Part shown: in pieces, positions 5,598 through 28,680 of the stretch
Layout of the letters: the number at the start of each line of letters is the position of its first letter
How positions within the stretch are numbered: position 1 is the first letter of the stretch
IMG/VR virus record: IMGVR_UViG_3300037311_000293
Strand: one strand, 5' to 3'
Origin: a virus
DNA length: 64,000 nucleotides
The notes under the pieces: model-generated
What the model saw: only the letters and a program-made list of their open reading frames with translations
What the model was told of the DNA's origin: nothing
Database searches by the model: none
Position numbers and translations under genes: made by a program

Positions 5598-7436
5598 TTA
5601 CATCGCGTAGTCCTGCGAAATCTTTGCTTCGATCTCTTCCATCGCGAAGTCTTCACTCCGACTTCGAGCCGCGTCATCCGTACTGTGCTCCTGAATCGGC
5701 GCGATGATGTCAGGCCGCCGGTGCTGCAAGAAGCTCGCGAGCATACAGTAGATGATCGAATGGAAGGTGTCGTCCGGAATACCCCGTGGTTTGTCGTATT
5801 TGATCATCTTCATCGAATCCGAGTACTCGGAATGGATCGACAAGATGTCATCGGCAAACGGGGTCTTGTAGACGTCCCAGTCGGGTAGGCGGATCTTCTT
5901 GGTCTTCAGTGCCATGAAGATGTCCGCCATGATGGGGGTGCGGAACACGATGTAGCGGTTGAGCGCGCTCTTGTACGTCACCTTCCGAGGGGATCGTGCC
6001 GCGTACTGGAACTGGTGGATACGCTTCGGGCCGAACACCGAGGTCAGCTTCTTGTTGGGGTGGAAGCCCATACCGTAGTCGACGCCAACGAACTTCAAGC
6101 GGAACTTCCGGATGAGCCGCATGATCTCTTCCATCTGCGGATCAGGATCTACAAGCTGACCATCGAAGCGCTTGGAATACAAGATCTGAAAGCTCGAGTC
6201 GTTTCGTACGTAACCGCCGACCGTGAGCACGGTGTAGGCGTGCTCACCAGTACCCCAGTCGATGCCGCCAAAGAGCTCGTGGCTCTGCGCCAACGTAGCC
6301 ACGGCATCTTCGTCCATGGTGTAGGTACTGGTCTCGTCGCAGGACATGACGAGTTCGGCGCGAGTGATCGGTTTGGTGCCGGCGTCGAAGCTCAGCGCCA
6401 TGACCTCGTTCATGAACTGCGCCGTGGGGTAGTTCTCCATGGCGTGGATGATCGAGCGCCACTTCGAATACGGATCTGGAGAGTCCATGTCGGGCTTCCA
6501 GAACCACGGCACCATGAGGCGGCAGATCCTATACCCCTCGAACTCTGCCCCTGGATTCATCTCAACCCAACGCGCCGCCGGATGCTCGGGGTTGATGGGG
6601 TGACCACAGCGGTCGCAGATCGGTCCTTTCTTGCCGATGTTCTTCGGACCCAACACGTTCCAGTGCCAGGTACCCGGCTGGTTCGGCGTACCGTGCCTGT
6701 CGCAGGGGATGCACCACTCGGCTTGGGTCGACTGCTTTGACCAAATGCTCTCGATCGTGTTGTCGAAGGTCTTCGGGGTCCCGCTGTACATGTAGAGCGG
6801 GTTCTTGAAGTGCGACGCCGTCTCCGCGATGACGGGCATGACGTCCTGCAAAAGATCCTGAACCTCATCGGCGAACACTGCGTTGTTCGACAAGCCGCGA
6901 ATACGGTCAGCGCTCAAGAAGGCATAGCGAAGGTAGATCTTCGACCGATTCAGGAACTCCTTCTCCAACAGGTTGTAAGTGAGGCTCTTGTGCGTAAGGG
7001 CCTTCACCATCGGCGACAGATCAATGATGTCGTCGATACGCGCAGTCGAAAACACCTTCGTCTGCATAGCGGACGGCGTGACGAACAACGCCGTGTACAT
7101 CGGATTCATGCCGACCAAGCTCAGCAGCCGGTTGCCGATCGTCGTCGACTTCTCGGTCTGACGACTCGTCATGAACAAGATCTTGCGCGCCTGTGTGTCG
7201 TAGACCCGGCGAAGATACTCGCGCTCCGAGAACTCGATGGGCTTGACTGCACCACGATCTCCGTCTTTGATACGGACGAAATGCTCAACCCATTGCGAGC
7301 TCTTGAGCTTGATCTTGGTTGTACGACGCCGAACCTTCTTCTTCGTGAACGGATCGTCGACCCGAGTGTTCGGCTCTCGACTGGCGTAAGCAGAGGGATC
7401 GATGTCTGAATCCGAAAAGATGGGCCTGCTCGGCAT
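5598..7436 (-). CDS. terL: Terminase large subunit (ATPase plus RNase H-like nuclease; GpA-like with Zn-ribbon linker)
   Basis: Walker A variant SRQTEKST, Walker B VFADEVQD, coupling motif GTPK, WCIPC..ICDRC, and nuclease GGIDWG...DDTFH. ATG 7436 has a GAGG RBS; GTG 7505 is an alternative start. Confidence 0.9.
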   Translation of the reverse strand: MPSRPIFSDSDIDPSAYASREPNTRVDDPFTKKKVRRRTTKIKLKSSQWVEHFVRIKDGDRGAVKPIEFSEREYLRRVYDTQARKILFMTSRQTEKSTTIGNRLLSLVGMNPMYTALFVTPSAMQTKVFSTARIDDIIDLSPMVKALTHKSLTYNLLEKEFLNRSKIYLRYAFLSADRIRGLSNNAVFADEVQDLLQDVMPVIAETASHFKNPLYMYSGTPKTFDNTIESIWSKQSTQAEWCIPCDRHGTPNQPGTWHWNVLGPKNIGKKGPICDRCGHPINPEHPAARWVEMNPGAEFEGYRICRLMVPWFWKPDMDSPDPYSKWRSIIHAMENYPTAQFMNEVMALSFDAGTKPITRAELVMSCDETSTYTMDEDAVATLAQSHELFGGIDWGTGEHAYTVLTVGGYVRNDSSFQILYSKRFDGQLVDPDPQMEEIMRLIRKFRLKFVGVDYGMGFHPNKKLTSVFGPKRIHQFQYAARSPRKVTYKSALNRYIVFRTPIMADIFMALKTKKIRLPDWDVYKTPFADDILSIHSEYSDSMKMIKYDKPRGIPDDTFHSIIYCMLASFLQHRRPDIIAPIQEHSTDDAARSRSEDFAMEEIEAKISQDYAM

Positions 7437-7476
7437 GACTGGCTTCTTCCTCGGCCTTCTAGGTTCTGCGGTCTCG

Positions 7477-7550
7477 GAGTCCCGTAGCGGCAGCGACGGT
7501 GCCACATGGTTCCGTTTCGGGATGGAACCGCTACCGCAGCTACGGGACTC
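7477..7550. repeat. Perfect 12-bp inverted repeat enclosing nested stems (structured terminase leader)
   Basis: GAGTCCCGTAGC (7477-7488) and GCTACGGGACTC (7539-7550). Inner stems GGCAGC/GCTACC (G.U pair on minus RNA) and GGTTCC/GGAACC. Confidence 0.7.
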
Positions 7551-7571
7551 AGCGAAGAAGTTCTTGAAAGC

Positions 7572-7625
7572 CTACAACGCAGAGCACGGCACGAAGTTCA
7601 CCGTCTCCTTTGCGCCGTACCGCAT
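7572..7625 (-). CDS. Possible 17-aa leader peptide (MRYGAKETVNFVPCSAL)
   Basis: ATG lies 5 nt after the stop of the 124-aa gene and the ORF ends just before the leader stem-loop. May be fortuitous. Confidence 0.2.
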   Translation of the reverse strand: MRYGAKETVNFVPCSAL

Positions 7626-7630
7626 GGTAC

Positions 7631-8005
7631 TCAGAGAGGGGCGTCGATCACCGAAAAAAAGCGCTCGACGATCGGCCAAGGGTCAGGGGACGCCCCGAGA
7701 TTCTTGACGATGATGCAGAAGCTGTTGAGCTCTTCGGTGAACACGGCCTTGAGATTCTCGAGGCGAAAGCACTGAGGCATCGCCTTCTCCAAGCGCTCGG
7801 GCATCTTGAACGAAGGGTCCCAGGAGCCGTTGCTGTCCTTCGTCCGGTCCGGTGGGAAGAACTGGAACACCATCGCGCCGTCGTCGTACCGGACGCCGTA
7901 CTCGGCGACGTAGTACGTTGTGACGCGTGCCAGGCGATTCGGAAGGGCTTCGCGCAGAGAGCTGCCTTCGACGGGCGCTCCTGCGAACTCGTTGATGTCA
8001 GTCAT
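7631..8005 (-). CDS. Hypothetical protein
   Basis: 124 aa, ATGA-coupled to the upstream gene, GAGGAG RBS. Confidence 0.75.
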   Translation of the reverse strand: MTDINEFAGAPVEGSSLREALPNRLARVTTYYVAEYGVRYDDGAMVFQFFPPDRTKDSNGSWDPSFKMPERLEKAMPQCFRLENLKAVFTEELNSFCIIVKNLGASPDPWPIVERFFSVIDAPL

Positions 8006-8973
8006 GCGATCTCCTCGTCAGGTTCCTTGTCAGCAGGAACTTCAGCGTAATCGGTTGCTGGAAGATCCACCACATTACCCGGCCTAAGTGCCGGGAGGTC
8101 TTTGACCGTGTCGATCTTTGTGGCGTCGTACGTCGTCTCGATACGACGGAACTCGTCGATCAGCTCAGACGTACTGCCACGATGGCGCGTGAGCTCCTCA
8201 TCGGCGCCGCGAACCATCTGAAAAGCCATGAAGGCTGCTTGTGTCCTCTGCAAGGACGGTCGCGTACTAAGCAACGCGTGCCCCATGAACATGTTGAAGC
8301 CTTGATCTCGAATGGCGGTGTACATCGCCACCGAGCTCAACGAGTCGGCACTACGGTCTGTAAGGGCAAGAACCAATGCCGCCCCAGCCGCAGAGCGCGG
8401 GGCATTGAGCGCCGCGAGGTAGTCAGAGTTGAGCTCAGCCGTTTCCTTGGGATCTTCGCCGTCGGCTCCGAGCCAGGACACCGCGATGCGTCGCCACTCC
8501 GGGATCGAGAGCGCCCCGGGATCCCAGTAGTAATGGGCAAAGGCGCGGACAACGCGGACGTTCATCGAGCGCTCTGGAAGACCGAAGCGTCCAGCGATTC
8601 GCGTCGCAATGGCCGCAGGGGTCAGCGGTCCCAACAGAAGGGCTTGAAGCACGCGACGAATCATGGGCTCGAACAGAAGGTCGGTCGCAGCCCCCACGAA
8701 CGGGTCGTTGGTCCACATGCCGTGGATGCCCATGCGCTCCAGGAACATCGAAGTCGCCTTCTCCATCGGCTTCTTCAACGGATCGAACTCCGGAGGCAGG
8801 AGTAGCTTGCGACGATAGCGGATGAGTTCTTCCGTGAACTTGATGAGCTCCTTCTCTTTTCGAGGCAGAGGCAAAGACAGATCATCGAGATGCTCGATGA
8901 TCTGTGCAGTGCTGTAGGCCCTCTTCGTGAGGAGGTAGTTGATGTAATGCCTACTGGGGTGCCGAAGCATCAC
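8002..8973 (-). CDS. Hypothetical helical protein; candidate terminase small subunit or DNA-binding protein
   Basis: 323 aa, upstream of terL in the same operon, with an HTH-like segment LTPAAIATRIAGRFG. Function is positional inference only. Confidence 0.4.
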   Translation of the reverse strand: MMLRHPSRHYINYLLTKRAYSTAQIIEHLDDLSLPLPRKEKELIKFTEELIRYRRKLLLPPEFDPLKKPMEKATSMFLERMGIHGMWTNDPFVGAATDLLFEPMIRRVLQALLLGPLTPAAIATRIAGRFGLPERSMNVRVVRAFAHYYWDPGALSIPEWRRIAVSWLGADGEDPKETAELNSDYLAALNAPRSAAGAALVLALTDRSADSLSSVAMYTAIRDQGFNMFMGHALLSTRPSLQRTQAAFMAFQMVRGADEELTRHRGSTSELIDEFRRIETTYDATKIDTVKDLPALRPGNVVDLPATDYAEVPADKEPDEEIA

Positions 8974-10994
8974 GTCCCCGAGAGATCGCGAAGCGAGAGC
9001 GCCTTGAGCCCCTGGATGACGTCGTCGAGTCCTCGAGCCGCGCGCGCCGCCGCGGCTTCCGGTACCTCACTGAGGCCCACACGAGAACCGAGAACGAGCT
9101 CGCACAGCATGGAAAGGCACTTCTCGAAGTACGGGATCCGGCTGATGTAGAGATGAACGTTCTCGGAGTTGATCAGCCCGAGGCTGAGGACTGCGTCCAC
9201 CGTCATCGACGACGGCATCGCCGCGGCTTCCTTCACGAGCTCTCGACGCAGACTCATGACCGCGGCGCTGTTCTCTGCTGCGATCTTCCGGGTACCGCTC
9301 GCGATGTCCCGGGCGAGCTTGACGTCGTTGAACCCCGTCACCGCTACGGGGTTGTCCATGGAAGCCGCGGCGATCTTGTTGGCGTGTGCTGCGTCGGCTC
9401 CGGCGAGGCAGAGGACGAACACCGCATCGTCGTAGCTCAGCGACTTCGACGTCACCGAGGCCAGCTTCGGAAGCCCGCGGAGCTCGAGCTGGAACGTTTC
9501 GCCATCCCATCCACCCAGGCGAATCGAGGCCCGACTCACCTCGGCCGCCGTCTTCGTAGCGGCTTCCGGTTCCTCGACCAAAGCAACGAGACTTTCGTTC
9601 TCGAGCGGCAAGAACTTCGCCGATGCCGGGAGAAGGAACTCACCCTTCAGCACCTGCATGACCTTGAGGCCCGGAACCATGCGGACGCGGGTGTGCTCTC
9701 CGGTCAGCGAACGGCACAACCAGGAATCACCACCACCGAGCTCGGCCTCACCTCCCTGCACCAGAAGCGGCACAGTGGCTTCCACGCCGCCCTGGCCTGC
9801 CATGTAGAAGCACCCGGTGCCCTTGGGAGGCGCCGAAGGCAGGTCGACACCCTCGGCGACCCGGGCACCCGCAATCTGGCCCTGTACGACCGCTGCGGCG
9901 CCGTTGGTGAACACCGCCATGGGTACGCGGGAGCCATCGAGATCGACGAGGTTGGGAAGTACCCAGCCCGTCATCTCCTTGCCATGAACGGTCTTGACCT
10001 TGTAGATGCCTGGGGTATCGACGCGTACCCACTTCGAGCTGTCGGTGTCGATCTTCATCGCACCACCGGCAACGGTCACGGTACCTTCGGTGTCGACACG
10101 ACGCGTCACGTCGTCACCAGCGAACTTGAGGAAGCGAGCTCGCGACATCAGAACAGGAGCCGTGTCGTGCAGCGCTGAGCGCGACGCCGCCTTGACCCAG
10201 TAGGATCCATCGGCGTAGCCGCACTGGACGACGTCTGCGGAGGCCGCAGACAGCGCGGTGTTGAAGACCTCATCGCTTCGGTGCGTCGCAGTCTTCTCGG
10301 CAGCGGAGAGCAGCAGCAACGCGTGAGTCATCACGGGATTGACGCCCTCGAGGATTGCCGGCTCCTTCTCCGCGATCTTGGCGAGGCCCGTGAGGTCGGG
10401 TCGCAGGAGCGTCGGAGCCACTGCCGAGAGCATGGGGTAGTCCGCAGCACTGAGCTTCATGCCGGGACCCTGGATCATCGTAACAGCGCCCTGGGTTCCA
10501 CCGCCCATGCCCTGCGAGATGCCGGCACCGAAGTCATTGTCACTCCGCCCCGGCGGATAGAACATGTTGTAGAGGTTCGTGTCGCCCCAGTCGTCGGTGA
10601 TCATCTCGAACGTCTCAGGGCGGAACAACGCCTCACGAAGACGCACGGCGTTAAGCGGGGCCATTTTGCCCGAGCGAGTCATCAGGATGTCGAGCGGGGA
10701 CAACTCGTGGTTCTTGATGACGATGGGGATCACGACACGGCGGGCGTTGGCTCCAGGACGAGCCACCGACAAGGCGCTATCGGTCGAGTTCTCGACGATG
10801 ATGACGCCGTAGCCGTACCCCTGTTCTTCGTCGACCTTCATCATCGCGACGCGGGGTGTGTAGTCCGATGCCTCCGGCAGCGTACGGAACAGCTCGACGA
10901 GAATCTGGCGCGGCCAGGCCTCGGGGTCCTCATCGAGGGTGACGGCTGCCGTCTTCTCGAACTTCAGGGAAGGCTTCTGGAGGAAAAGATCCAT
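8970..10994 (-). CDS. Putative head (core) protein with multiple K-x-A-[A/S] motifs
   Basis: ATG 10994 has an AAGGTG RBS. Contains KTAA x2, KAAS, KLAS, KIAA x2 and KEAA, plus variants KLSA and KTAT. Confidence 0.6.
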   Translation of the reverse strand: MDLFLQKPSLKFEKTAAVTLDEDPEAWPRQILVELFRTLPEASDYTPRVAMMKVDEEQGYGYGVIIVENSTDSALSVARPGANARRVVIPIVIKNHELSPLDILMTRSGKMAPLNAVRLREALFRPETFEMITDDWGDTNLYNMFYPPGRSDNDFGAGISQGMGGGTQGAVTMIQGPGMKLSAADYPMLSAVAPTLLRPDLTGLAKIAEKEPAILEGVNPVMTHALLLLSAAEKTATHRSDEVFNTALSAASADVVQCGYADGSYWVKAASRSALHDTAPVLMSRARFLKFAGDDVTRRVDTEGTVTVAGGAMKIDTDSSKWVRVDTPGIYKVKTVHGKEMTGWVLPNLVDLDGSRVPMAVFTNGAAAVVQGQIAGARVAEGVDLPSAPPKGTGCFYMAGQGGVEATVPLLVQGGEAELGGGDSWLCRSLTGEHTRVRMVPGLKVMQVLKGEFLLPASAKFLPLENESLVALVEEPEAATKTAAEVSRASIRLGGWDGETFQLELRGLPKLASVTSKSLSYDDAVFVLCLAGADAAHANKIAAASMDNPVAVTGFNDVKLARDIASGTRKIAAENSAAVMSLRRELVKEAAAMPSSMTVDAVLSLGLINSENVHLYISRIPYFEKCLSMLCELVLGSRVGLSEVPEAAAARAARGLDDVIQGLKALSLRDLSGT

Positions 10995-11005
10995 GTTGAT
11001 CACCT

Positions 11006-12148
11006 TTACTCGAGTAGAACTTTCTGAGACAGGATTCGCTGTAGAGCCTGGATCCACGCCGGTGAGGGAGAGGCTACCATAGCACCCCCGACTACGGTCA
11101 CTGGCCATACGGCTGACGACAGCAGTTGCACGAGCTCGCGTCCCTTGACGGCTGGGTTCGACGCCGACTCGCTGGCCAGCTTGACCTGAGAGCCGCCGAT
11201 TACGTGTACACGAGAGGCGATCTGTTTGATTCCACGATCAGATCGAAGCTCTACGTTACCTTTCACCCTTACGGTCTGATCCCCGTCGACATCGAGCACG
11301 TCGTTACCGGTGACGGTAACGGTACGATCAGCGCCGATGACCTCGGTCTTTGTACCATCGGTAGTGATGATCAGAGAATAGACTTCGTTCTCGACCTCGC
11401 CGGTATCGCGGTCAATGCCCTTGGGGGCGATGTGTACTTGCCAAGCCGTCTTGGTACCTCCGGGCGCGGCAAGTGGGAAATGACTGACGCGGACAGAAGC
11501 CTTCGCGTCTTGAGCGAACTCGTTGACGTGGAACACGTAGGACGCCGGAGCGTCGCCGCTGGGATCGTCCTCCTGACGCGCCACGGTCCAGGAGACATCT
11601 CCGCCGAAAGTCGAGAGCTCGTAGTTCTCTGCGAAGTCCTTGATGTAGTTCAAGACCGGAATGTAGATCCGTTGCGACAACGGAGTGCTTCCGATCTGAA
11701 GAACACCACCGCGCTTGAGGATGAGGAAGTTCTCGTCTCGAGTCGTGATGGCGATGTCGCCCGGGTTCAACTGCGGGCGCCGAGAACGAAAGCTCACGTC
11801 CGTAGCAGAGCCCTCCGCGGCAGCCGTAGAGCGTTCCGGACCTTCTTCTTCGTTCAGCGTCTGCAACGTCGACGCAGCGCCGAGATACCCCATGATGAAC
11901 GGCGGAGTGTTGTCGCTGGGGAAAGCGATCAAACAGATCGCACCGACCTCGGGGAGATGGTGAATGCCCTCGCCGCTGGAGAAGTGATGGTAAGGCGACA
12001 TCACTTGGATGTCTTCGACCGTCTTGCCGCTGTGTCTCGTATCCACGCGCACCGTGAAGGTCTTACGGTTCACGTCCGTGATCACGCCTTCTTCGCAGCG
12101 GAAGTAGGAGTAGCGGTTGTGCGACGGTGCGCCTTCTGTACGTGCCAT
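11006..12148 (-). CDS. Baseplate central spike (gp5/GpV/VgrG-like OB fold plus beta-helix)
   Basis: OB-fold pattern GVITDV..TFTVRV...HHLPEVGAICLIAFPSDNTPPFIMGYL and C-terminal gp5-type repeats IGADRTVTVTGNDVLDVDGDQTVRVKGNV. ATG overlaps the RNAP stop (TAATG). Confidence 0.7.
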   Translation of the reverse strand: MARTEGAPSHNRYSYFRCEEGVITDVNRKTFTVRVDTRHSGKTVEDIQVMSPYHHFSSGEGIHHLPEVGAICLIAFPSDNTPPFIMGYLGAASTLQTLNEEEGPERSTAAAEGSATDVSFRSRRPQLNPGDIAITTRDENFLILKRGGVLQIGSTPLSQRIYIPVLNYIKDFAENYELSTFGGDVSWTVARQEDDPSGDAPASYVFHVNEFAQDAKASVRVSHFPLAAPGGTKTAWQVHIAPKGIDRDTGEVENEVYSLIITTDGTKTEVIGADRTVTVTGNDVLDVDGDQTVRVKGNVELRSDRGIKQIASRVHVIGGSQVKLASESASNPAVKGRELVQLLSSAVWPVTVVGGAMVASPSPAWIQALQRILSQKVLLE

Positions 12149-15100
12149 TACGACCTCTTCAGCGGAGCGGCCGTACCCCAAGGTTTGGCGTCCGGCCCGG
12201 CGCCGACTGTAACACCTACAGCCAGAGCTGGGATCGGGTGCGGACCGGCCACCGAGGAACGCTGACCCGTCTGTGCGGCAGTCATCAAGTTCTGGCCCAG
12301 GCGCTCGCCCTGAAGGCGCGCCATCCAGTCGGTCTGACGACGCAGTGGGTTCTCCTTGGTCGGCACCAGCATCGATTCGTAGCGGATGGGCTTCTTCCCG
12401 TGGAGCACCGTACGGTTGACCTCGTCGATGACGGACTTCTGTACGGTGTCGCCGCGGATGTAGCTACCGTGGTCACCGGGATCTGTGATGCGAACGATAC
12501 CAGTGGCGCTGCGTACCGCGAGCTCGACGTGACGACGAAGCACGCCTTCGCGGCCGTAGATGGTTCCGACGCGATCGACCATGTGAGACTGGACTGCATC
12601 CAGACCCTTGGTCTTCAGAAGATCGTGGATGTTGGCCTCACCAGCCGTCAGCTTTTCGCCGCGCTCGACCATCACACCTGGGCGAATGTGAGGCATCGGC
12701 TTCTGCCGCGTCTTGATCGGCGTCGTCTTGCCCTCAAGCACGATGGCCCACCCGCCTTGCTGGAGCTCGCGGACTGAAACCACCTTTCCGGCCCGGGGCG
12801 CCAGAGCTGCGTCTTCGCGGCCGGGCTTTGCCGCGTCGAACAACCGCTGCACCTCTTCGAACTCAGATACCGACTGGCCTGCGGTGCTGACGATGCCGCC
12901 GCCATGCGTTTGCTTCAGCATGATCTGAGCAGCGCGTTCACCAAGGGCTTGCGCCGCGATGAGACCGACATTCTCACCAGAGCGATACTCCGCACCGTTG
13001 GGGTGGATACCCATGCACTTCGAGCACACGCCCTGCGGCATGCGGCACTTCAATGGACTTCGGACCACGAAACGATCGATGCGGCTTTCCTTCGCCTTGG
13101 CCAGCATGTCGGGAGTCACGACGGCACCAGCGGGGTAGGTGTGCCCGCCGAGCGTGACAGGTTGAGCCAAGTGACGATCGACCACGTCCTTGTCGGCTAC
13201 GGACAACGCCATCCCCTGCTGGGTGCCGCAATCGTCGCCAGAGATCGCCTGATCGATGTTGCTTTGCACCAGCAGCTTGGACATGTAGCCGGGCTTACGA
13301 ACCGAATCCGTCTTCTGAATCACACCACGGCGAGCACCGGCGGCCTGTAGGAAGTAGCCGCCGAGATCGACACCCTCAGCAAAGCTCTTGGTCACCGGCA
13401 CACGAGACGGCTTCCCCAGATGATCCTCTACCAGCATCGGAGCCATGATCAGGCCCTGGAACTGCTCACGCTTGGCCTTGATGCCAGAGCCCAAGGGAGC
13501 AGGGGCCATGTCGCTGACGTTCGTGGGCTTGGCCGCGAGCATCTTGTTGTAGACGTCGTGAATCCGACGCGTCGCCGCCAACCACTTGTCCGTCGCCTGA
13601 TCGCTATTCAACGAGGCAACGTCCTTCTTCGTCTCCGAAATGATCTTGTCGCGCTCTCGACGAAGCGGCTCGATGTCCTGAAGCGACACCGTATGCCCAG
13701 ACTCGTATGCCATCTGGAATCCCAGGCGGCTCATCCCATCGACTACCTCGACGAAGTGCTTGGGCTGCGTCTTGGCGACATCCTTGAGGATCTTCTCCTG
13801 GTACTTACGGTCCAGCGGCTTGCTGAGATTCGTGAGGATGTCGGAGCGGTACTTCTCCGGAACGATGAAGGCCATGCGAAGCCGCCCGAGCGTCGTGTTG
13901 CCGACGTTCTTGACGTGGATCTCATCGTTCAGATTGATCCTGTTCTCTCGGAACGCCTTCTCGGCTTCGTCCTTGCTGGCGAAGGTCCCACTGCGCTTCC
14001 CACGAGGAATCGACATCCGATACAGCGACAGCGCTGCTTCATTGGCCGGAGCGAAGATCACATCACCCGACGCTTCTGAGATGGTACGCGCGGACGGAAG
14101 AATCCGGTGTGCTTCGTCTACGGCCTCCCGAGTGAGAGGAACCATGAGGGCGACGGTGTCACCGTCGATGTCGCCGCCGATCGGAGGAAGAATCAGGGGG
14201 CTCACCTTGATGGCGGGATCGTCGGTCAGTCGGATGCGCTGAGCCACCAAGCCGTATTGATGAAGCACGGGGTCACGCTTCATCAGCACCGGGCGCGTCT
14301 CCACTTCCTTCTCGAGGGCCTTGATGGCCATCGGGTGCTTCTCGGAGATCATACGTTGCGCCATGTCCGGTCGAACGCGCGCAGCGAGTAGACGCTGAGC
14401 GACCATGGGGCGCATGAGCTCGAGGGCGATCTTCTTTGGTACACCCATCTCGTCAACACTGAGATTGGGGTCGACAACGATGGTGGCTCGAGCAGTGTAG
14501 TCCTGCTTCTTCGCGATCATCTTGTCTTGGAAGAAGCCATCCTTGGGCTTCTCACCAGAGATCATATGGATGATTCCGGGGAGCGTCTTGTCCGGATTCT
14601 CTTTGGTCCCACGCATGTCCAAGTCGAGAGCCTTCTTCCCCTTCGGCGTCGTACCAAGAAGGTTCTGGAGCTCCTGGTACAGGCCGGCACGCGTATCCAG
14701 CGTGTTGTTGTACGGGACCTTGCCCTCGCCCTTGGCCAGCGACTCATTCACCATCCCGAGACGCTTGTACAACGCGTTGAGCGGATTGTTCTTGATCGTA
14801 CCGTCGGGCAGCGTGGTCTGCGGACGGAAGACCGGAGGAAGTACCGGCACGGCCTGGATTGTCCAGGCCTCTGCGGGGGTCTTCTTGGCCTCCTTCAGTG
14901 TGAGGAGCGTCTTGTACTTGAAGTTCAGCTTGTTGAGCGTCGCGCCCTTGGTCTTGGGGTCGTTGATCTCCGCAAGAGTAGCCTTCAGCGCCTTGTCGAG
15001 ATCGACCTTGGCGAGTGCTGCCTTGATCCCCTTGCCGCCGTAGAGGCCACCCGGAAGGGTTTTCTTACCCTCGACGATCGCCGGAATGTCGGCCTCGGAG

Positions 15101-18100
15101 ATACCGAGGGTGTGTGCGATGGCGCGCGAGAACACCGGGTTGGGCATCGGCTCTACGAGCTCGATGTGCCCCCAATGGGTACCCGTGGGTCCGCCGGTGA
15201 CGTAGGGGTCGAAGATACCACCGGGTTCGGGCTTGTCGTCCTTGCCTCGGATCGAGCGCGTCGGGCGCTTGATGACGCCACGACTAAGACCTCGGGTCTC
15301 TGCGTCGCTTCGGGGCATCAGACGGATCTCAGCCCCGTTCTTCTGAACGTCCAGACCAAGTCCCGTCAGCATGGCCTCGAACTTCTTGAACACGAACGGG
15401 ATACGGGGCGCCGGGATGCGCTCACCGTTTGTCAGCGCACCCCAGACCTCTCGGGCCTGCGGCTGGTCGGACTTCAGAGTCTGCATCTCACGCAGATTGT
15501 CCTTGAGCCCGGCTGCGAGAGCGGCGTAGACGCCAAGAGAGCCGATGCTCTGCGCACCGGTGTGGTCTCCGCCCTTGGGGACTTTGGTGTCGGTGTCGTA
15601 ATGAATCTTTGGAGCGCCGTACTGCGTAACGATGGAGTCGTAGCCGCCACCACGGACATGCGTCTTCTTGTCGATCTGATGCTCGAGCTGGAAGGCGTAG
15701 TGCGGACCGGTCATCACCTCACCGAGCTTCCGACCGGTCTTCGGGTCGTACAGCGTCTCGGTGTCCTTGATGCCGTGCTTCTTGAGCTCGTCTTGGACCT
15801 TCTTGAGGTAGTCGACTCCACCCTGGAAGTTCTTCACCAGGTACGTCTTACCCGTCTTGTCCGCGATCTTGCCTGCCGCGGTCTCGAGAAGCTGACCCGG
15901 ATTCATACGACCCGGGACGGATACGGGGTTGATGAGCATCTCGACGGGCTTGCCCTTGCCGTCTACGGGCATCTCCTTGTCGTCCAAGATCGAGGTCACA
16001 ATACCCTTCGCGCTGTGCCGCGTAGAGATCTTCGACCCGATCTGAGCAGGCTCTACCGTGCGGACATGTACGACGACGTTCTTGCCCACACGTTCCGCAC
16101 GGATGACCTCACCCTCGTACTCGCTGTCCCAAATCATCGTGGCGTTGTTGAATCGGTTGCGGAGGCGCTTTCCGATCTTGTACTTCGCCGTGATGTCGGA
16201 CGATCCTGGAGTCTGTGATTCGTTGAGCGCAAGAACGAGAGGATCGCCAGGACGAACGCGCGTACCAGGACGCACGATACCGTCGTCTCCGATGTGCTTG
16301 AGCTTGTCGTTTCCGTAGACCGCTGGCTTAGCGATCAGAAACTCCTTCTTTCCGATACGGTGTGTGTCCGTCACAAGCATCGAAGGCTTGTACAGATGTT
16401 CGGATGCCAGACGCTGAGCCGCGCTGGCCGAGATCACAATACCGTCTTCGTGGTTCGACCCATTGGCCAGGTAAGCCGTGCGCAGATTGGTCCCGAGGGC
16501 CAGTGTGCCGTCCTTGGTGAAGTTGTTGTCGGCGACGAGCTGCCCAGCGCGCACCTTCTGTCCGGGCTTCACCGTGGGGTGGGAGTGGAGCTCGCCCTTG
16601 TCGTGGTTCGTTGGATAGTGGTGGTAGAGCGGGACGCTGTGCGCCTTGCCATCTGCGTCTTGGATCGTGATGGCGTCCTCCGTGACGGACTTCACTACGC
16701 CGTCGACAGGGGCTTTGTGCGCCAGGAAGCCACCACCAATGAGTCCTTCGAACGTCTTCCCCGCCCCGGCCTCCACCTGAACCTTCGGGGGTTCCCGGCC
16801 CACGACACTGATGGCCTGGGCCATGTGACGCGCCGACATCGTAGAACGACCAGCGGAGTCGTTCTGCATGAAGGGAACCAAGTTCGTTTCGATGGCAAAA
16901 ACCTGAGACGCATTCGGCATCACGTAGTCCGCCTTGGTCCACGGGATGTCGTCTCGCATGTGCCCGCTGCCGTCGGACATACGCACTGCCTTACCAAGGG
17001 GCTGGGGCTTTCCTGCCTTCCACTTCACCTGATCGGGGAGGATCACATTGCTCACCGCAGCCGTCGCGGCGTCGACATCTTCGAACTTCCCGGTCTTCAG
17101 ATTGTAGAGACGGACGTGCGGTTTGCGATCGCGAATCTCAACACCGAACGCAAGATGAGTGTTGACGCCGGCATTGGACTCCGGAGTGAACACGGGATCC
17201 AAGAAGCCGAGATGACTGGGATCGAGGGCGGTGTTCGACTTCGACAACGCATGCTGGTTCTGGATACCGCCAGGACCAGCGATGGTGACCATGCTGTGAT
17301 CCGCCAGCATTGCCAGCGGATTGGTTTGCTTGCCGTTCGAAGCCAACGATGTCGTGAAGGCGTGAAACAACGGCTTCTGCAAGAGGTCGGGCATGACGAC
17401 GTCACGAAGCACCGATGCATCGCCGGACATCAGACGCTGCTGCACCTTTGGGCGCCCGAGTACCTGTTGAATGCGGCGTTGAATCTCCGGGGAAGCCTTC
17501 TCCAAGCGATCTGCAAAGTGATCCTTGGCCGTCCACAGCTCCTTGTATCGAAGACTGTCGATGGGGTCGGGCTCCGCACGCTTCGCCGCGACGTCGAGCA
17601 GCTTCGTAGCGGCACGGAACAGAACATCACCGTTCACTTGCTCGGACTTCACCCCGACGTTGGCGTGCGCCACTGCGGGGTCCATCTTGGTCCCTTCGAA
17701 GATGGCACGGGTCTCGAGCAGCAGATTCGTCTTTGGCCCCGGAGGCTCCTTGCGCCAGGTCTCGTAGAGCGATCGAAGATCTTTGTCCAAGTTGGACTTC
17801 GCCTTGGACGCCTTGAAGGCATCCTCGCCCCACGACGCCTTCATCTTCTCGTCAGGCACACCCAGAGCGTGGAGCACGGAGTACAGAGGGATCTTTCGGT
17901 TACCCACCTTCATGTGGAGGTAACCGCTCATGTCCATCTGCATGTCGAAGCTGCGCCCCTTGGCGAGCTGAAACTGGGCCTCGAACTCTCCGGCACGCTC
18001 GGTGGCCTTGACGTAAACACCCGGGCGAAGACGCCACTGGTTCGAGATGAACTTCTCTTGACCGCCAACGATGTAGCTGTACTGCCGGGTCAACTTGGGG

Positions 18101-18381
18101 ATCTTGGCTAGCTGGGCCTTACGGCTAGTCAGCACCTTTCCCGAGCCGGTGTCTACGACCTCGACGACGCCGGTCAGGGAAGCAGCCCACGACCGCCCTT
18201 CCAGCTTCGCTTTGAACTGGTCGTGGATGTCGTCGACACCCAAACGATCGTCGACCTGTAGGTCGCGTACGCGCACCTCGAGGCGTCCAGTGCGGTCCTT
18301 CACGGGGAAGGTCGACTCGATCTGCCCGATGAGCTGCTGCTTGAGCTCGTCGAACTGGCGATGGGGGTCCGATGTCAGCAC
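12148..18381 (-). CDS. rpoBC: Phage multisubunit-type RNA polymerase, beta and beta' fused in one 2077-aa polypeptide
   Basis: Beta motifs: QTNPL..AGPGG, HLGFLDPVFTPE, GSNHEDGIVIS, GSKISTRHSAKG, NPVSVPGRMNPGQLLE, LTGLGLDV. Beta' motifs then follow in frame: GIFDP..WGHIEL, VPVLPPVFRP, KQDYTARATIV, KRDPVLH, GGDIDGD, bridge helix GARRGVIQKTDSVRKPGY, trigger loop GENVGLIAAQALGERAAQIMLKQTHGGG. Confidence 0.95.
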   Translation of the reverse strand: MLTSDPHRQFDELKQQLIGQIESTFPVKDRTGRLEVRVRDLQVDDRLGVDDIHDQFKAKLEGRSWAASLTGVVEVVDTGSGKVLTSRKAQLAKIPKLTRQYSYIVGGQEKFISNQWRLRPGVYVKATERAGEFEAQFQLAKGRSFDMQMDMSGYLHMKVGNRKIPLYSVLHALGVPDEKMKASWGEDAFKASKAKSNLDKDLRSLYETWRKEPPGPKTNLLLETRAIFEGTKMDPAVAHANVGVKSEQVNGDVLFRAATKLLDVAAKRAEPDPIDSLRYKELWTAKDHFADRLEKASPEIQRRIQQVLGRPKVQQRLMSGDASVLRDVVMPDLLQKPLFHAFTTSLASNGKQTNPLAMLADHSMVTIAGPGGIQNQHALSKSNTALDPSHLGFLDPVFTPESNAGVNTHLAFGVEIRDRKPHVRLYNLKTGKFEDVDAATAAVSNVILPDQVKWKAGKPQPLGKAVRMSDGSGHMRDDIPWTKADYVMPNASQVFAIETNLVPFMQNDSAGRSTMSARHMAQAISVVGREPPKVQVEAGAGKTFEGLIGGGFLAHKAPVDGVVKSVTEDAITIQDADGKAHSVPLYHHYPTNHDKGELHSHPTVKPGQKVRAGQLVADNNFTKDGTLALGTNLRTAYLANGSNHEDGIVISASAAQRLASEHLYKPSMLVTDTHRIGKKEFLIAKPAVYGNDKLKHIGDDGIVRPGTRVRPGDPLVLALNESQTPGSSDITAKYKIGKRLRNRFNNATMIWDSEYEGEVIRAERVGKNVVVHVRTVEPAQIGSKISTRHSAKGIVTSILDDKEMPVDGKGKPVEMLINPVSVPGRMNPGQLLETAAGKIADKTGKTYLVKNFQGGVDYLKKVQDELKKHGIKDTETLYDPKTGRKLGEVMTGPHYAFQLEHQIDKKTHVRGGGYDSIVTQYGAPKIHYDTDTKVPKGGDHTGAQSIGSLGVYAALAAGLKDNLREMQTLKSDQPQAREVWGALTNGERIPAPRIPFVFKKFEAMLTGLGLDVQKNGAEIRLMPRSDAETRGLSRGVIKRPTRSIRGKDDKPEPGGIFDPYVTGGPTGTHWGHIELVEPMPNPVFSRAIAHTLGISEADIPAIVEGKKTLPGGLYGGKGIKAALAKVDLDKALKATLAEINDPKTKGATLNKLNFKYKTLLTLKEAKKTPAEAWTIQAVPVLPPVFRPQTTLPDGTIKNNPLNALYKRLGMVNESLAKGEGKVPYNNTLDTRAGLYQELQNLLGTTPKGKKALDLDMRGTKENPDKTLPGIIHMISGEKPKDGFFQDKMIAKKQDYTARATIVVDPNLSVDEMGVPKKIALELMRPMVAQRLLAARVRPDMAQRMISEKHPMAIKALEKEVETRPVLMKRDPVLHQYGLVAQRIRLTDDPAIKVSPLILPPIGGDIDGDTVALMVPLTREAVDEAHRILPSARTISEASGDVIFAPANEAALSLYRMSIPRGKRSGTFASKDEAEKAFRENRINLNDEIHVKNVGNTTLGRLRMAFIVPEKYRSDILTNLSKPLDRKYQEKILKDVAKTQPKHFVEVVDGMSRLGFQMAYESGHTVSLQDIEPLRRERDKIISETKKDVASLNSDQATDKWLAATRRIHDVYNKMLAAKPTNVSDMAPAPLGSGIKAKREQFQGLIMAPMLVEDHLGKPSRVPVTKSFAEGVDLGGYFLQAAGARRGVIQKTDSVRKPGYMSKLLVQSNIDQAISGDDCGTQQGMALSVADKDVVDRHLAQPVTLGGHTYPAGAVVTPDMLAKAKESRIDRFVVRSPLKCRMPQGVCSKCMGIHPNGAEYRSGENVGLIAAQALGERAAQIMLKQTHGGGIVSTAGQSVSEFEEVQRLFDAAKPGREDAALAPRAGKVVSVRELQQGGWAIVLEGKTTPIKTRQKPMPHIRPGVMVERGEKLTAGEANIHDLLKTKGLDAVQSHMVDRVGTIYGREGVLRRHVELAVRSATGIVRITDPGDHGSYIRGDTVQKSVIDEVNRTVLHGKKPIRYESMLVPTKENPLRRQTDWMARLQGERLGQNLMTAAQTGQRSSVAGPHPIPALAVGVTVGAGPDAKPWGTAAPLKRS

Positions 18382-18387
18382 AGCGGC

Positions 18388-18417
18388 AGTCTACTTCCCC
18401 CTCAAGAAAAGGGTCAA
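18388..18417 (-). promoter_or_regulatory. Sigma70/sigmaA-type promoter giving leaderless RNAP mRNA
   Basis: On minus: TTGACC (18417-18412), N18, TAGACT (18393-18388), N6, GTG 18381. Confidence 0.7.
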
Positions 18418-18423: not shown

Positions 18424-18437
18424 CCTATCAGTAAGTG
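18424..18437 (+). promoter_or_regulatory. CCTATCAGTAAGTG motif (candidate phage-specific promoter or operator)
   Basis: Exact 14-bp match to 28659-28672, immediately followed by ATG 18438. Confidence 0.65.
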
Positions 18438-18676: not shown

Positions 18677-19038
18677 AAACCAAGGCACACGTGGATCTTC
18701 ATCCACACGACGAAGACGAGACATCCTTCGACGACATGACGCCGAACTGTCATGCGTGCGACACCGAGCCCGTGGGCGTCGTCACCGAGGTCTATCTCGT
18801 CGTCAAAGGGATGCTGTTCCCCAGCTCGGAATACGACGTCCCGGTGTTCATTCCGGATCCCGACGTGAGAATGACGGTGCTCACGATGCCGAATGGGCAA
18901 CTGGGGATCGTCACCGACCAAAGCATCACGAAGTACATGCACGCAGAGTGTTTGGATCAGCTCGTGAACGAAGCGGGTTCAACGTTCTGGGAAGACGCGG
19001 AAGAAGAGGAAGAGGAAGAGGAAGAGGACGACGAATGA
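18673..19038 (+). CDS. Hypothetical acidic protein with CxxC...HxxC
   Basis: NCHACD and HAEC motifs with a poly-E/D tail; ATGA-coupled at both ends. Confidence 0.7.
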   Translation: MKTKAHVDLHPHDEDETSFDDMTPNCHACDTEPVGVVTEVYLVVKGMLFPSSEYDVPVFIPDPDVRMTVLTMPNGQLGIVTDQSITKYMHAECLDQLVNEAGSTFWEDAEEEEEEEEEDDE

Positions 19039-20162
19039 GCTACGGGTATCTACAGGCGAAGATCCTAGTGGGCCGTGAACTGAAGGCGCAACACTCTCTG
19101 GCGGGCAAGACGGCGTCTGCGCTGAACGTGCCCCTCCTTCTGGGGCCGGTAGGGGGCGGTAAGACCGCCCTGGCTCGTGGGATGGCCGAAGAGCACGCAA
19201 TGTTCTACGCCCCCATCAACAGCGGGGAGAACAGCGACCCCACGGATGTCGCGGGCGTTCCCGTGCCCAGCATGATCCGCTCCCTTCTCCGTGACGGTAC
19301 GAGCTCCGAGAAGGCAGACGCCCGCGGCCAATACATGGAGTGGGTCCTCAATCGCTACGCCACCATGGCGTGTTCGGAGCCCGTGTTTCTGTTCTTCGAC
19401 GACCTCGACAAGGCGCCGCCGAAGGTCCAAGGCGCTCTCCTCGGGATCACGGGGAACAGGATGTTCCGCGATCGCCCGCTGCATCCCGGTACGCTGCTGA
19501 TGGGTGCTGGGAACCGTATCGATGATGACGCGTACGCCAACGAGATCAGCGAGTCGTTGCGTACGCGCATGACCATCATCGAGATGGTTCCTGATGTGCG
19601 TTCCTTCTCGCTGTATGGCACACAGACCGGTGAGATCAACCCGGCGTTCTTGGGCTACCTGCAATGGAAACCCGAACACCTCCACAAGTGGCAAGACGGC
19701 GTGAACCGCTTCCCCACACCGCGTGGGTGGTGGGAGGCGTCGAAGCAAACCGAGCTGTTCCCCGACCCGTTCGAGGATGTCTTCGGTAACGGCGTCGCCG
19801 AGAACTGGAAGGGGATCGTAGCCCGTAAACTCGGCGACCCCGTGGCCAATGACTTCTGGGCGTGGTTCGAGATCATCTCGAAGGTCGACGTCCAAGGAAT
19901 CTTGATCAACGGAACGCTCCCAGTACTCGCCGATCCAAAGAAAACGCGCATGACTCAGTTCGCCTGTGTGTATGCCGTGTCTCAGGTTCTCAACAAGGAC
20001 GGCGTATCGAAGAAGCACACGGGACTTGCTGTCCTTGTCGACAGCCTTGAGGCCGACATGCGCGTGGCCTTTCTGGTCCAGCTCTCCGGCAAGCTCAGGG
20101 CGGACATCGCGAAGCTCTTCCCACACGTCGCAAGCACAGTGATGAAGGATCTGGTTGGATGA
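19035..20162 (+). CDS. MoxR-family AAA+ ATPase
   Basis: Walker A GPVGGGKT, Walker B FLFFDDLDK, sensor GAGNR, arginine finger SLRTR, and FPTPRGW. Confidence 0.85.
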   Translation: MSYGYLQAKILVGRELKAQHSLAGKTASALNVPLLLGPVGGGKTALARGMAEEHAMFYAPINSGENSDPTDVAGVPVPSMIRSLLRDGTSSEKADARGQYMEWVLNRYATMACSEPVFLFFDDLDKAPPKVQGALLGITGNRMFRDRPLHPGTLLMGAGNRIDDDAYANEISESLRTRMTIIEMVPDVRSFSLYGTQTGEINPAFLGYLQWKPEHLHKWQDGVNRFPTPRGWWEASKQTELFPDPFEDVFGNGVAENWKGIVARKLGDPVANDFWAWFEIISKVDVQGILINGTLPVLADPKKTRMTQFACVYAVSQVLNKDGVSKKHTGLAVLVDSLEADMRVAFLVQLSGKLRADIAKLFPHVASTVMKDLVG

Positions 20163-22644: not shown

Positions 22645-22675
22645 AAGAAAGCCCCCGAAAGGGGGCTGCCTTCTT
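22645..22675. terminator. Intrinsic terminator between convergent operons
   Basis: AGCCCCC-GAAA-GGGGGCT flanked by AAGAA and CTTCTT; reads hairpin plus TTCTT on the minus strand. Confidence 0.75.
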
Positions 22676-27117: not shown

Positions 27118-28617
27118 TCAGGTTGCCGCAGCAAGGCGGGACAGTACCACCTTTTGCGGATCCGGCATCGACTTGAAGATTCCGACGGGGTCCTTTGCGA
27201 AGCTGCTGGCGAAGCCATCGCCGAACAACTCATCGAGTTTCGCGGTGCGCTCTGAGAGCGACTTGAGCTGCATGCCGCTGACGTAGTCGTTCCCCGCGGA
27301 CCACGAGTAGGTCTCGCACTCGTCGGCCGCATGCTTCGTTCCGTAGACCGCGGCGTATGGGTCGAGGAACCCGACACCCGGCCGGTTGTAGCTACCGGAC
27401 GCACCGGTCTCCACATCGGCTCCCATGATCATGTTGACCATGACCATGGGATCGATCTCCGCCTTCTTCTCGAGCAAGAGCTCGTACACCTCTTCGTGTC
27501 CGGTGCCCATGAAAGCCGTGATACGAGCGTGAAGCTGGGCTTCGACGTTCTCCCCGTACTCGGTGCCGGCGTAGTTCATGACGGCGCCAGAGAGCTTGAC
27601 TCCGAGCTCATCGGCGCGCTGAGCCACGGACACCGCGTATGCGCGGCGTTCTTCGAGCGGGAACGAGTGCAGATGATCGTCGAAGTACGCCGCGGCCTGC
27701 TTGACCTGTGCGGTGGTGTCGATGGGATAGCGCTCGAGGTGGGGAAGTGCGTAGTGAACCGCGCTTGCTTGCTTCTTCTTGACGTGACCATCGAACAGAG
27801 TGAGATCACCGCAGTGAGCCCACTCCGCAGACGCCAGGAGTGCAGAAGTCTTCTGGGGGAGGTCGAGGCTCTTACTGGGCGAAGAGCGGACAGGATGATT
27901 GCGCAGAGTACCCTGCGGCATGATCTCGGTACCCGTGAGGTCTGCCTTCTTCGCCATCACGGGGTCGATCTGGTCCCTCTTCTCGAGCTGCTTGTCCAGC
28001 TTCTTGTGCGTCGAGTCGAGCTTGGAGAACAGATCGAACAACCCGAAAATGTGGCCGGACTCCGGACCATCCCCGCGTTGCATCGCGTTGTCTTGTTCCT
28101 TCGTGAGCTCGACTGTGCGACCAGAGGCCGTCTTGGTTCCTGAAGCCTGCGCGGCGCGGAACTCGTCCATGCGCTCATGGGCCTTCTCGCTTCCGCTTCT
28201 TGCGCGATGCGCCATGTCCATGGCACCGAAGCCGACGGTGAGAGCCTTTCCGATCATCGCCTTCTTGATCAGATCTGTCGGAGGCTGAAGGTCATACCAC
28301 GAACACCCCACCACAAGGTTCGACGCAACCTTTGCCTGGACGTCATCGGGCAGTAGGTGCCCACACTCCAGGAAGTAGAGGATGGAGATCGTGGTGTGCT
28401 CGGGGTCGTGCATCGCGTACTTGCGAAGCACGTTCCCATGGTTCGTGGCCACCAGCCCGAACAGGCGGTCGGGAAGCTCCTCGAGCTCGTCGGTCGTCAA
28501 CAAACGCGACGCCGCCAGCTTGGTCGGTAGCTTCTGCTTGAGGGCAGCCAGCTTGTTGCGGAGGACGAGACCACGAGGGTCGTCGTAGATGTCGAGCACG
28601 ATCCCGGCGATTCGCAT
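27118..28617 (-). CDS. Putative head assembly protein with multiple K-x-A-[A/S] motifs
   Basis: ATG 28617 (leaderless). Contains KLAA, KTAS, KQAS, KQAA and KHAA, plus variant KTSA. Confidence 0.6.
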   Translation of the reverse strand: MRIAGIVLDIYDDPRGLVLRNKLAALKQKLPTKLAASRLLTTDELEELPDRLFGLVATNHGNVLRKYAMHDPEHTTISILYFLECGHLLPDDVQAKVASNLVVGCSWYDLQPPTDLIKKAMIGKALTVGFGAMDMAHRARSGSEKAHERMDEFRAAQASGTKTASGRTVELTKEQDNAMQRGDGPESGHIFGLFDLFSKLDSTHKKLDKQLEKRDQIDPVMAKKADLTGTEIMPQGTLRNHPVRSSPSKSLDLPQKTSALLASAEWAHCGDLTLFDGHVKKKQASAVHYALPHLERYPIDTTAQVKQAAAYFDDHLHSFPLEERRAYAVSVAQRADELGVKLSGAVMNYAGTEYGENVEAQLHARITAFMGTGHEEVYELLLEKKAEIDPMVMVNMIMGADVETGASGSYNRPGVGFLDPYAAVYGTKHAADECETYSWSAGNDYVSGMQLKSLSERTAKLDELFGDGFASSFAKDPVGIFKSMPDPQKVVLSRLAAAT

Positions 28618-28623
28618 GCACGA

Positions 28624-28653
28624 ATCGTACTGCGTGCAAGGGAAGTGGGTCAA
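28624..28653 (-). promoter_or_regulatory. Sigma70/sigmaA-type promoter giving leaderless mRNA for the portal operon
   Basis: On minus: TTGACC (28653-28648), N18, TACGAT (28629-28624), N6, ATG 28617. Geometry identical to the RNAP promoter. Confidence 0.7.
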
Positions 28654-28658
28654 ACCGT

Positions 28659-28672: not shown

Positions 28673-28680
28673 GAGGTGCA

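Follow-up and report, generated by a model that had tools for sequence, protein, structure and literature searches.

A single-chain beta-beta' RNA polymerase and a co-occurring FliA-like sigma factor encoded by an uncultured tailed phage

Bacterial-type RNA polymerases (RNAPs) normally have five subunits, so a genome in which both large subunits form one polypeptide raises the question of how few proteins such an enzyme needs and what a phage might use it for. The genome considered here is the IMG/VR virus record IMGVR_UViG_3300037311_000293, a 177,453-bp sequence of an uncultured tailed phage that is rated complete by CheckV. The stretch that was analysed, referred to below as the window, comprises the first 63,907 bases of this record, reverse-complemented. 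Its central element is a gene for a fused beta-beta' RNAP at 12148..18381 on the minus strand, and the analysis suggests that one chain plus one sigma factor may suffice.

The fused gene is delimited by a GTG start at 18381 and a TAA stop at 12150-12148, with support from the list of open reading frames (ORFs), translation, Pfam and full-length homologues. A single ORF encodes 2077 aa, and its translation contains zero internal stops. On the same chain, Pfam places RNA_pol_Rpb2_3 and Rpb2_6 at residues 351-920, followed by Rpb1_1, Rpb1_2, Rpb1_3 and Rpb1_5 at residues 1148-1972, as expected from the original prediction of a single-chain fusion without a stop. The scores of PF00562 (181.6 bits, cut-off 23.4), PF00623 (65.5), PF04998 (64.9), PF04983 (29.0) and PF04565 (22.5) are above the Pfam cut-offs, PF04997 scores under its own, and the Rpb2_6 model is matched at E 3e-53. 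A sequence search of the PDB places bacterial beta' (E 8e-82) and beta (E 1e-68) closest among solved structures, at about 26% identity.

The beta moiety (residues 1-1013, 15343..18381, minus strand), delimited by blastp and by the alignment of the family with Escherichia coli, aligns with E. coli beta 39-220, 360-884 and 1046-1338. The beta' moiety (residues 1014-2077, 12151..15342, minus strand), delimited by alignments and the PDB sequence search, aligns with E. coli beta' 181-939 and 1141-1346. LTGLGLDVQK closes the beta part at residue 1013, and the junction NGA (residues 1014-1016, 15334..15342, minus strand), found where it had been placed, is followed by EIRLMPRSD. The chain passes from the end of beta to the start of beta' with no linker domain, and the length of the junction is kept in the family. 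In a 68-member family alignment with E. coli, the C-terminal residues of beta are directly followed by the N-terminal residues of beta', which suggests that a linker between the two is effectively absent.

At 2077 aa against 2749 aa for E. coli beta (1342) plus beta' (1407), the protein is 672 aa shorter, close to the figure of about 670 aa given before, and it falls about 180 aa short of the smallest bacterial beta plus beta' of known structure (1100 + 1161 aa). The E. coli beta segments without a counterpart are 3-30, 225-358 (SI1), 935-1038 (SI2) and 1128-1188, and the beta' segments are 14-31, 64-88 (zinc ribbon), 117-141 and 950-1098 (SI3). Several loop tips, part of the jaw and the beta' C-terminal tail are also gone relative to E. 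coli. No Cys is present in the stretch aligned with the zinc-ribbon residues C70, C72, C85 and C88 of E. coli beta', either in the query or in the family consensus. Only one insertion relative to E. coli is its own, of 13 aa. The word minimised, applied to the protein in the original prediction, is therefore right as to length, but what is missing is mostly the lineage-specific insertions of E. coli, plus the beta' zinc ribbon and loop tips, and the alignment suggests that the word should be read as largely free of lineage-specific insertions.

In the catalytic loop, GGDIDGD (residues 1402-1408, 14158..14178, minus strand), the columns D1404, D1406, G1407 and D1408 are invariant. The three Asp residues align with E. 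coli D460, D462 and D464 and are invariant in 25 diverse members of the family (30-66% identity), as are other core residues, among them the beta Lys pair K784 and K792, which aligns with E. coli K1065 and K1073. GGDIDGD is found throughout the subclade to which the protein belongs (52-92% identity), and NADFDGD in the wider family consensus and in bacteria. The Asn that is replaced by Gly is involved in ribose recognition in E. coli, and sugar discrimination may differ in enzymes with the GGDIDGD loop. An equivalent of beta' R425, the fork loop and the N-terminal trigger-loop helix with its His are kept. The bridge helix aligns with E. coli beta' 769-805 and the trigger loop with 913-942, its C-terminal arm being poorly aligned. 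The second zinc site aligns with E. coli C814, C888, C895 and C898, with conservation of at least 90% in its Cys columns. Also kept, and conserved across the family, are the two elements on which sigma regions 2 and 4 dock in bacteria, namely the beta' clamp coiled-coil and the beta flap-tip helix. At the positions of the E. coli rifampicin-pocket residues Q513, D516, H526 and S531, the protein has S, K, D and T (residues 341-410, window 17160-17360, minus strand), and because these residues differ from those of E. coli the enzyme is probably rifampicin-insensitive. The ORF thus encodes a complete, apparently functional single-chain catalytic core of a bacterial-type two-barrel RNAP of a phage lineage.

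No gene for alpha (PF01000, PF01193) or omega (PF01192) was found in the whole 177,453-bp genome by searches that were positive in 14 of 14 control genomes. The polymerase gene is the only one in the genome, no second RNAP being found across its full length. The earlier statement that alpha, omega and sigma genes are all missing holds for the window, and for alpha and omega it extends to the genome; it does not extend to sigma, for which a gene is present outside the window. The use of host alpha would be compatible with these data.

The fusion is widespread. A word-indexed search of 5.8 billion proteins recovered at least 110 clusters of proteins of 2040-2150 aa, with 36-92% identity over about 99% coverage. 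Contigs of 160-200 kb from JGI, ENA, NCBI and Logan assemblies carry many of the full-length homologues, and inteins add to the length of some. When the beta' moiety was compared exhaustively by HMMER with 1.84 billion representatives at 50% clustering, 9642 matches were obtained; among the best 150 of these (30-76% identity), nearly all have beta' starting from about residue 990-1020 of a protein that is about 2050 aa long or lengthened by inteins. The same architecture is seen in at least 150 protein clusters of 30-92% identity. In six relatives on contigs of metagenome-assembled genomes (MAGs), recovered from species-representative genomes, the ORF runs uninterrupted for 1998-2873 aa. The recurrence of the architecture in hundreds of independent assemblies rules out an assembly error at the junction, and the fusion is ancient and conserved. 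On the same evidence the polymerase is no rarity, but belongs to a very large metagenomic family that has cultured relatives with a partly split chain.

Many members of the family carry inteins or homing-endonuclease domains (PF14528, PF05204, PF14890) and reach 2400-4700 aa, some with three to four matched stretches; P0012, P0014, P0036, P0042, P0058 and P0093 are among these intein-type homologues. Phage-sized contigs with a fused polymerase and the same portal and spike neighbours have also been deposited inside MAGs (L027-L032), under the labels Leptolyngbyaceae (a cyanobacterium), Dependentiae, Bacteroidales, Desulfurellales, Aenigmatarchaeota and 'uncultured bacterium'. Such contigs are probably binning contamination and not evidence of the host.

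To place the family, a maximum likelihood tree was inferred from 55 taxa and 1394 columns of a query-anchored alignment by a quick IQ-TREE search under LG+G4. In this tree, 21 bacteria of diverse phyla fall on one side of a branch with full support in the Shimodaira-Hasegawa-like approximate likelihood ratio test (SH-aLRT 100), apart from all 31 fused sequences. The fused sequences form a clade (SH-aLRT 95), and their sister group consists of Salmonella phage Arash and Vibrio phage D69 (SH-aLRT 89). In GTDB, with one genome per prokaryotic species, six phage-sized contigs match over the full length at 29-36% identity, and genuine rpoB-rpoC loci at 24-29%. A match of the jumbo-phage type, from YerA41, reaches E 7e-17 over 40% of the query, compared with 1e-54 to 1e-92 for bacterial loci. 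Nesting within cellular rpoB/rpoC is ruled out for the sampled taxa by the tree and by the 24-29% identity, and the suggestion of a lineage apart from cellular rpoBC is borne out by the separate clade.

The sigma-70-family gene (271 aa, G000:C1:167912-168727) is about 100 kb from the RNAP gene. Its product has weak but colinear Pfam matches to sigma-70 regions 2, 3 and the C-terminal helix-turn-helix (HTH), and is 29% identical to Gp10 of Arash (E 9e-24). The profile of its family, for which 80 homologues were found, several of them on contigs matching in size those with the fused polymerase, matches RpoD (411-599), SigA and RpoS from region 2 to region 4.2 at E of about 1e-12. An AlphaFold (AF2) model has a mean predicted local distance difference test score (pLDDT) of 85.7, and the top 50 Foldseek hits to it are sigma factors at probability 1.0, nearly all of them chains of RNAP complexes. 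The best NCBIfam match is to FliA/WhiG (TIGR02479, 37.3 bits versus a cut-off of 189.6); the protein resembles FliA more than other sigmas in sequence, but is not a member by the NCBI threshold. The sigma gene is present in four of four RNAP-bearing records tested, namely two close relatives, Arash and D69. Promoter specificity had been attributed to an unknown phage factor or host sigma; as a conserved FliA-like sigma co-occurs with the polymerase, including in Arash and D69, an unknown factor need not be invoked, and from the distribution of this sigma the phage lineage is shown to have co-inherited a sigma with its single-chain core. A second weak sigma-like match (L005, 259 aa) proved to be only a generic HTH protein and not a sigma. 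No kinship of the sigma family was detectable with the annotated sigma of Cobetia phage Carin-5 (hhalign probability 0.13).

Distinctive promoter motifs had been noted before, and two classes were indeed found, with both the RNAP promoter and CTATCAG conserved in relatives. Class 1 is sigma-70-like. The promoter of the RNAP operon (18388..18417, minus strand) consists of TTGACC, 18 nt and TAGACT, followed after 6 nt by the GTG start, and the RNAP mRNA is thus predicted to be leaderless. Its hexamers and spacing are kept in L008-L015, whose polymerases are 73-76% identical, and the flanks have diverged. Four class 1 sites (TTGAC-N17/18-TANNNT) are found genome-wide, where a rough estimate of chance occurrence is about 0.5: 18388-18417 (minus), about 28620-28653 (minus), G000:C1:119229 and G000:C1:149382. 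In each the start codon is 6-7 nt past the -10 element, which implies leaderless mRNAs if the promoters are correctly predicted. Two of the four have GTG starts, and class 1 sites head the RNAP-terminase and portal operons. A strict sigma-70 consensus was rejected as the main promoter class, there being only these four sites in the genome.

Class 2 has the consensus AAAAC-N14-CTATcAG-N3-gTGAGGAG and often stands right after a terminator hairpin. Genome-wide, 23 of 31 CTATNAG sites are just upstream of a Shine-Dalgarno sequence and start codon, in a genome of which about 11% is intergenic. Within the window, sites are at 18424-18437, about 28659-28672, 4825 and 63209, and 19 more are in G000:C1 82-168 kb. 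Most non-structural operons have a class 2 promoter at their head, as do the sigma gene, the MoxR block and the large plus-strand structural block (about 28660). Twice class 2 is found back to back with class 1. Divergent from the RNAP promoter is CCTATCAGTAAGTG (18424..18437, plus strand), in which CTATCAG is kept in relatives and after which the ATG of a 53-aa ORF follows directly. The second divergent pair (28617..28681) combines leftward TTGACC, 18 nt, TACGAT, 6 nt and ATG with a rightward perfect CCTATCAGTAAGTG plus GGAGG; the leftward promoter heads an operon ending in portal, and the rightward one heads the large plus-strand structural block. The sigma-28 consensus has the -10 element GCCGATAA and upstream TCTAAAG (PMC12784957). 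The class 2 element GCCTATCA agrees with GCCGATAA at six of eight positions (PMC12784957), and class 2 likewise has an A-rich upstream element. If transcription is assumed to start 8 nt downstream, in sigma-28 style, the two copies that lack a ribosome-binding site would begin at the A of ATG. This geometry fits a FliA-like phage sigma.

The genes expressed with the RNAP are a morphogenesis set, as seen from its coupling to a spike gene, its operon with the large terminase (TerL) and the promoter class that it has in common with the portal operon. The RNAP gene is the first cistron of the operon. Directly downstream is a gpV-type baseplate spike gene (380 aa, 11006..12148, minus strand; Pfam Phage_base_V 26.6 bits, cut-off 23.8, and PHROGs baseplate matches). 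The RNAP stop and the spike ATG overlap as TAATG, an arrangement by which the RNAP is, as far as sequence can tell, translationally coupled to the spike. Spike homologues are 3' of the RNAP in L019, L020, L027 and L028. The remainder of the operon (5598..11108, minus strand), which is syntenic with L019, L027 and L028, encodes a 712-aa protein rich in K-x-A motifs, the products of 323-aa and 124-aa genes and a GpA-type TerL (5598-7505, minus strand; PF05876 GpA_ATPase, phrog_675), with overlapping stop and start codons at its junctions. A portal-like gene (633 aa, 22675..24576, minus strand) has a weak PHROGs portal match and 29% identity (E 2e-75) to the Arash portal gp204. In eight related loci, those of Arash and D69 among them, a portal homologue immediately precedes the RNAP gene on the same strand, and in four related loci homologues of the spike and the 712-aa protein are downstream. 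The order portal-RNAP-spike is thus conserved across the family.

The closest cultured relatives are Arash (OQ632216; Gp206 and Gp216, with sigma Gp10) and Vibrio phages D69, D148 and D181 (OZ195729 and related records). The Arash/D69 group is 28-31% identical over 69-94% of the protein. As in the phage studied here, beta and beta' are fused at the same junction, the same insertions are absent, the gene is just downstream of portal and a homologous sigma is encoded. Unlike here, the chain is cut inside beta' near residue 1490, giving a protein of about 1525 aa with beta and the N-terminal part of beta', and a separate gene of about 610 aa for the C-terminal part; this split is absent from the query and from all members of the fused clade, in which the ORF is uninterrupted. 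Between the two pieces there are two small ORFs in D69 and about 4.7 kb of genes in Arash. Free-standing homing endonuclease genes interrupt the polymerase region in D148 and D181. In an Arash virion preparation, Gp206 was the most-detected protein, Gp216 was in the top five and the sigma Gp10 had 100% coverage (PMC10585845). The paper annotates the polymerase genes and does not analyse the enzyme (PMC10585845).

The explanation that best accounts for these observations, with a probability of about 0.6, is that a single-chain core and a FliA-like sigma are made with the particle proteins and packaged. The covalent link between beta and beta' would replace the alpha dimer as an assembly platform, allowing the chain to assemble without alpha. 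The fused core would pair with the 271-aa phage sigma in a two-protein holoenzyme, and this would read the AAAAC-N14-CTATcAG class, at the head of at least 23 genes or operons that include the sigma gene itself. The sigma-70-like leaderless promoter of the polymerase gene would presumably be read by the host holoenzyme. The polymerase would then be produced together with particle proteins, packaged with sigma into the virion, and start transcription with it in the next host. That the fused core and phage sigma form the holoenzyme for class 2 promoters, with the covalent link in place of the alpha platform, is probable. Packaging as in Arash is favoured with slightly more reserve; expression with particle genes and the Arash virion proteome suggest it. 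The complete picture, of a self-sufficient two-protein machine with neither alpha nor omega that is packaged and injected, follows a sigma-28-like code and makes leaderless or nearly leaderless mRNAs, is tentative, and its chances fall a little short of even. If it is true, this would be the simplest known sigma-dependent RNAP of the multisubunit type, widespread in uncultured 160-200 kb phages.

Several points weigh against this explanation. The phage is known from its genome alone, so that all evidence on it is sequence and predicted structure. Its sigma scores under the NCBIfam and Pfam family cut-offs, and between the A-tract and the -10-like element there are about 2 nt fewer than in sigma-28 promoters. 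The tree has 21 bacteria, no archaea and no mReC sequences, and was made by a quick search on a query-anchored alignment. A phage sigma could also redirect the host core. The sigma gene stands behind a phage-type promoter, and the first sigma molecules therefore need a source. The near-consensus sigma-70-type promoter of the RNAP gene would permit early expression by the host polymerase, in which case packaging is not needed. The Arash virion list comprises 116 of about 270 proteins, including ribonucleotide reductases, and its authors allow for enzyme carry-over (PMC10585845).

Some of these points lead to a relay like that of T7. The RNAP gene of T7 is expressed early by the host polymerase. 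Here, likewise, the host sigma-A holoenzyme would read the RNAP gene soon after injection, the new phage polymerase and phage sigma would then take over the CTATnAG promoters, the enzyme would be unpackaged and its place among particle genes would be historical. Such a relay would explain why TTGACC-N18-TAGACT is near the host-type consensus and strictly kept in relatives, with four such sites in the genome, and it suits a phage with a single polymerase gene, unlike phiKZ-type phages with their separate virion and non-virion sets; in Arash, moreover, the number of proteins listed for the virion leaves room for contaminants. However, the portal operon has the same promoter class, and the RNAP is coupled to the spike and co-transcribed with the terminase, so "early" would cover typical late genes. 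In Arash and D69 the gene directly follows portal and a small ORF, with no gap for a promoter, the order portal-RNAP-spike is kept across very deep divergence, and the sigma gene depends on a phage-type promoter for being read. A relay of this kind is possible but doubtful.

The partners may also be crossed, the phage sigma steering the host core to CTATnAG like T4 gp55 or the SPO1 sigmas, and the fused core using host sigma-A, another factor or sigma-free initiation. The reprogramming of host core by phage sigmas is well established (jumbo phages are summarised in PMC7824862), and the clamp helices and flap tip could serve as docking sites of a generic kind. On the other hand, in all records tested, of the fused and of the Arash-like clade, this sigma family and the polymerase occur together, and polymerase and sigma were both in the Arash virion preparation. 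The residues aligned with R275, E295 and A302 of the E. coli beta' clamp helices, positions important for sigma-70 binding, differ, and simple use of the host primary sigma is therefore disfavoured. Crossed partners are improbable. Far less likely still is an ordinary cellular rpoBC that was mis-assembled or recently captured and needs host alpha. Fusions of rpoB and rpoC do exist in Helicobacter and Wolbachia, and several relatives have been deposited inside bacterial or archaeal MAGs; yet hundreds of independent assemblies of varied origin show the identical architecture, the contig is that of a complete phage, in which terminase, portal and spike genes are present, and the tree parts the clade from all 21 sampled bacteria, with 24-29% identity to any bacterial sequence. 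The MAG contigs themselves are phage-sized, have the same portal and spike neighbours, and are assigned to unrelated phyla and even to an archaeon. A cellular or artefactual origin is effectively excluded.

The cellular rpoB-rpoC fusions of Helicobacter and Wolbachia, and an engineered E. coli fusion, have the same order and the same end-to-start join. The C-terminus of beta and the N-terminus of beta' are therefore compatible with a covalent link, as is well established. The cellular fusions join ordinary bacterial subunits that nest within their host phyla, have all insertions and the zinc ribbon, are about 2900 aa long and work with alpha2, omega and cell sigmas. Unlike them, the protein described here is outside the sampled bacteria and is encoded by a genome without alpha or omega.

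Among phage enzymes, the mReC polymerases (Weinheimer and Aylward 2020, PMC7481178) are from uncultured tailed phages and have beta and beta' that are recognisable by cellular hidden Markov models, fall outside the cellular clades and are slimmer than the bacterial subunits. The polymerase studied here likewise matches cellular profiles and branches outside cellular clades, in a tree built from sequences other than mReC. In the rows of parts 9 and 10 of Supplementary Data 2, mReC beta and beta' are separate (about 1000 + 905 or about 1365 + 1005 aa), and some genomes have two sets (PMC7481178); the fused chain is longer than the mReC pairs of about 1000 + about 905 aa. A fusion of about 2070 aa is absent among these mReC rows (PMC7481178), and the IMG/VR samples of related contigs appear there only as non-RNAP reference rows. 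The mReC phages are there given TerL PF03237 and major capsid protein PF07068 (PMC7481178), whereas TerL here is PF05876. The phiKZ and AR9 enzymes are also two-barrel and without alpha or omega, and one set is packaged for early genes (PMC7598289, PMC7824862). They are far more divergent in sequence, and differ in having beta and beta' in four or five polypeptides and in two paralogous sets, compared with one gene and one set here, and in using gp68-type factors and no sigma (PMC7824862), compared with the sigma found here. The crAss-like gp66, YonO and the tape-measure-fused RNAP of P23-45 have both barrels in one polypeptide, as here, and the gp66 and P23-45 enzymes are virion-delivered. 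These enzymes are undetectable by cellular beta/beta' profiles (PMC7481178) and are not known to use sigma-70-family factors, whereas Rpb2_6 is matched here. Cobetia phage Carin-5 (PV155638; L108), which is cultured, has a slim bacterial-like beta of 1083 aa, a beta' of 927 aa and an annotated sigma, and is on a very long branch in the 55-taxon tree. Its polymerase genes are separate and adjacent and are in the replication module (dCMP deaminase/topoisomerase to DNA polymerase I), in contrast to the particle module here.

Phage-encoded bacterial-type multisubunit RNAPs are thus a known kind, exemplified by mReC and Arash. The polymerase described here is novel within it in being completely fused, in lacking the zinc ribbon, in its pairing with a FliA-like sigma and in its place in a morphogenesis operon. 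In a literature search, with subscription journals outside its coverage, no account of a phage enzyme with fused beta and beta' was found. With at least 150 clusters at 50% identity among the best matches, the family is very diverse, and its gene can mark a large, uncharacterised group of phages of 160-200 kb whose contigs often end up mis-binned in MAGs. The series of fully fused, partly split and fully split enzymes is natural material on the evolution of polymerase subunit architecture. As a compact and genetically simple model, the enzyme could also be used to study sigma-dependent initiation and alpha-free assembly, and in structural and engineering work, and the cultured relatives Arash, D69, D148 and D181 make the packaging and promoter questions testable.

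Further observations concern the surrounding genes. K-x-A motifs are enriched in the 712-aa protein (8970-11108, minus strand; 12 versus 3.8 expected, z = 4.5) and in the first gene of the portal operon (27118-28653, minus strand; z = 4.1), and mildly depleted in the polymerase (8 versus 15 expected, z = -2.0). Such a pattern would fit a prohead-protease code avoided by the polymerase. As a packaging signature of the polymerase the motif was set aside, because the pattern suits several readings.

The 53-aa ORF on the other side of the RNAP promoter (18438-18599, plus strand) encodes a very acidic product. It follows the 14-mer promoter directly, without a ribosome-binding site, and its mRNA is predicted to be leaderless. 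It precedes a block headed by a MoxR-like AAA+ ATPase gene (18756..20162, plus strand; Pfam AAA_5, PHROGs ATPase). In this phage the plus-strand MoxR-headed block (18756-22644) stands between portal and polymerase, whereas most other relatives have the portal gene immediately before that of the polymerase. A bpMoxR and VWA pair is likewise divergent from the RNAP in L021 (2613-5385), a 30%-identical relative.

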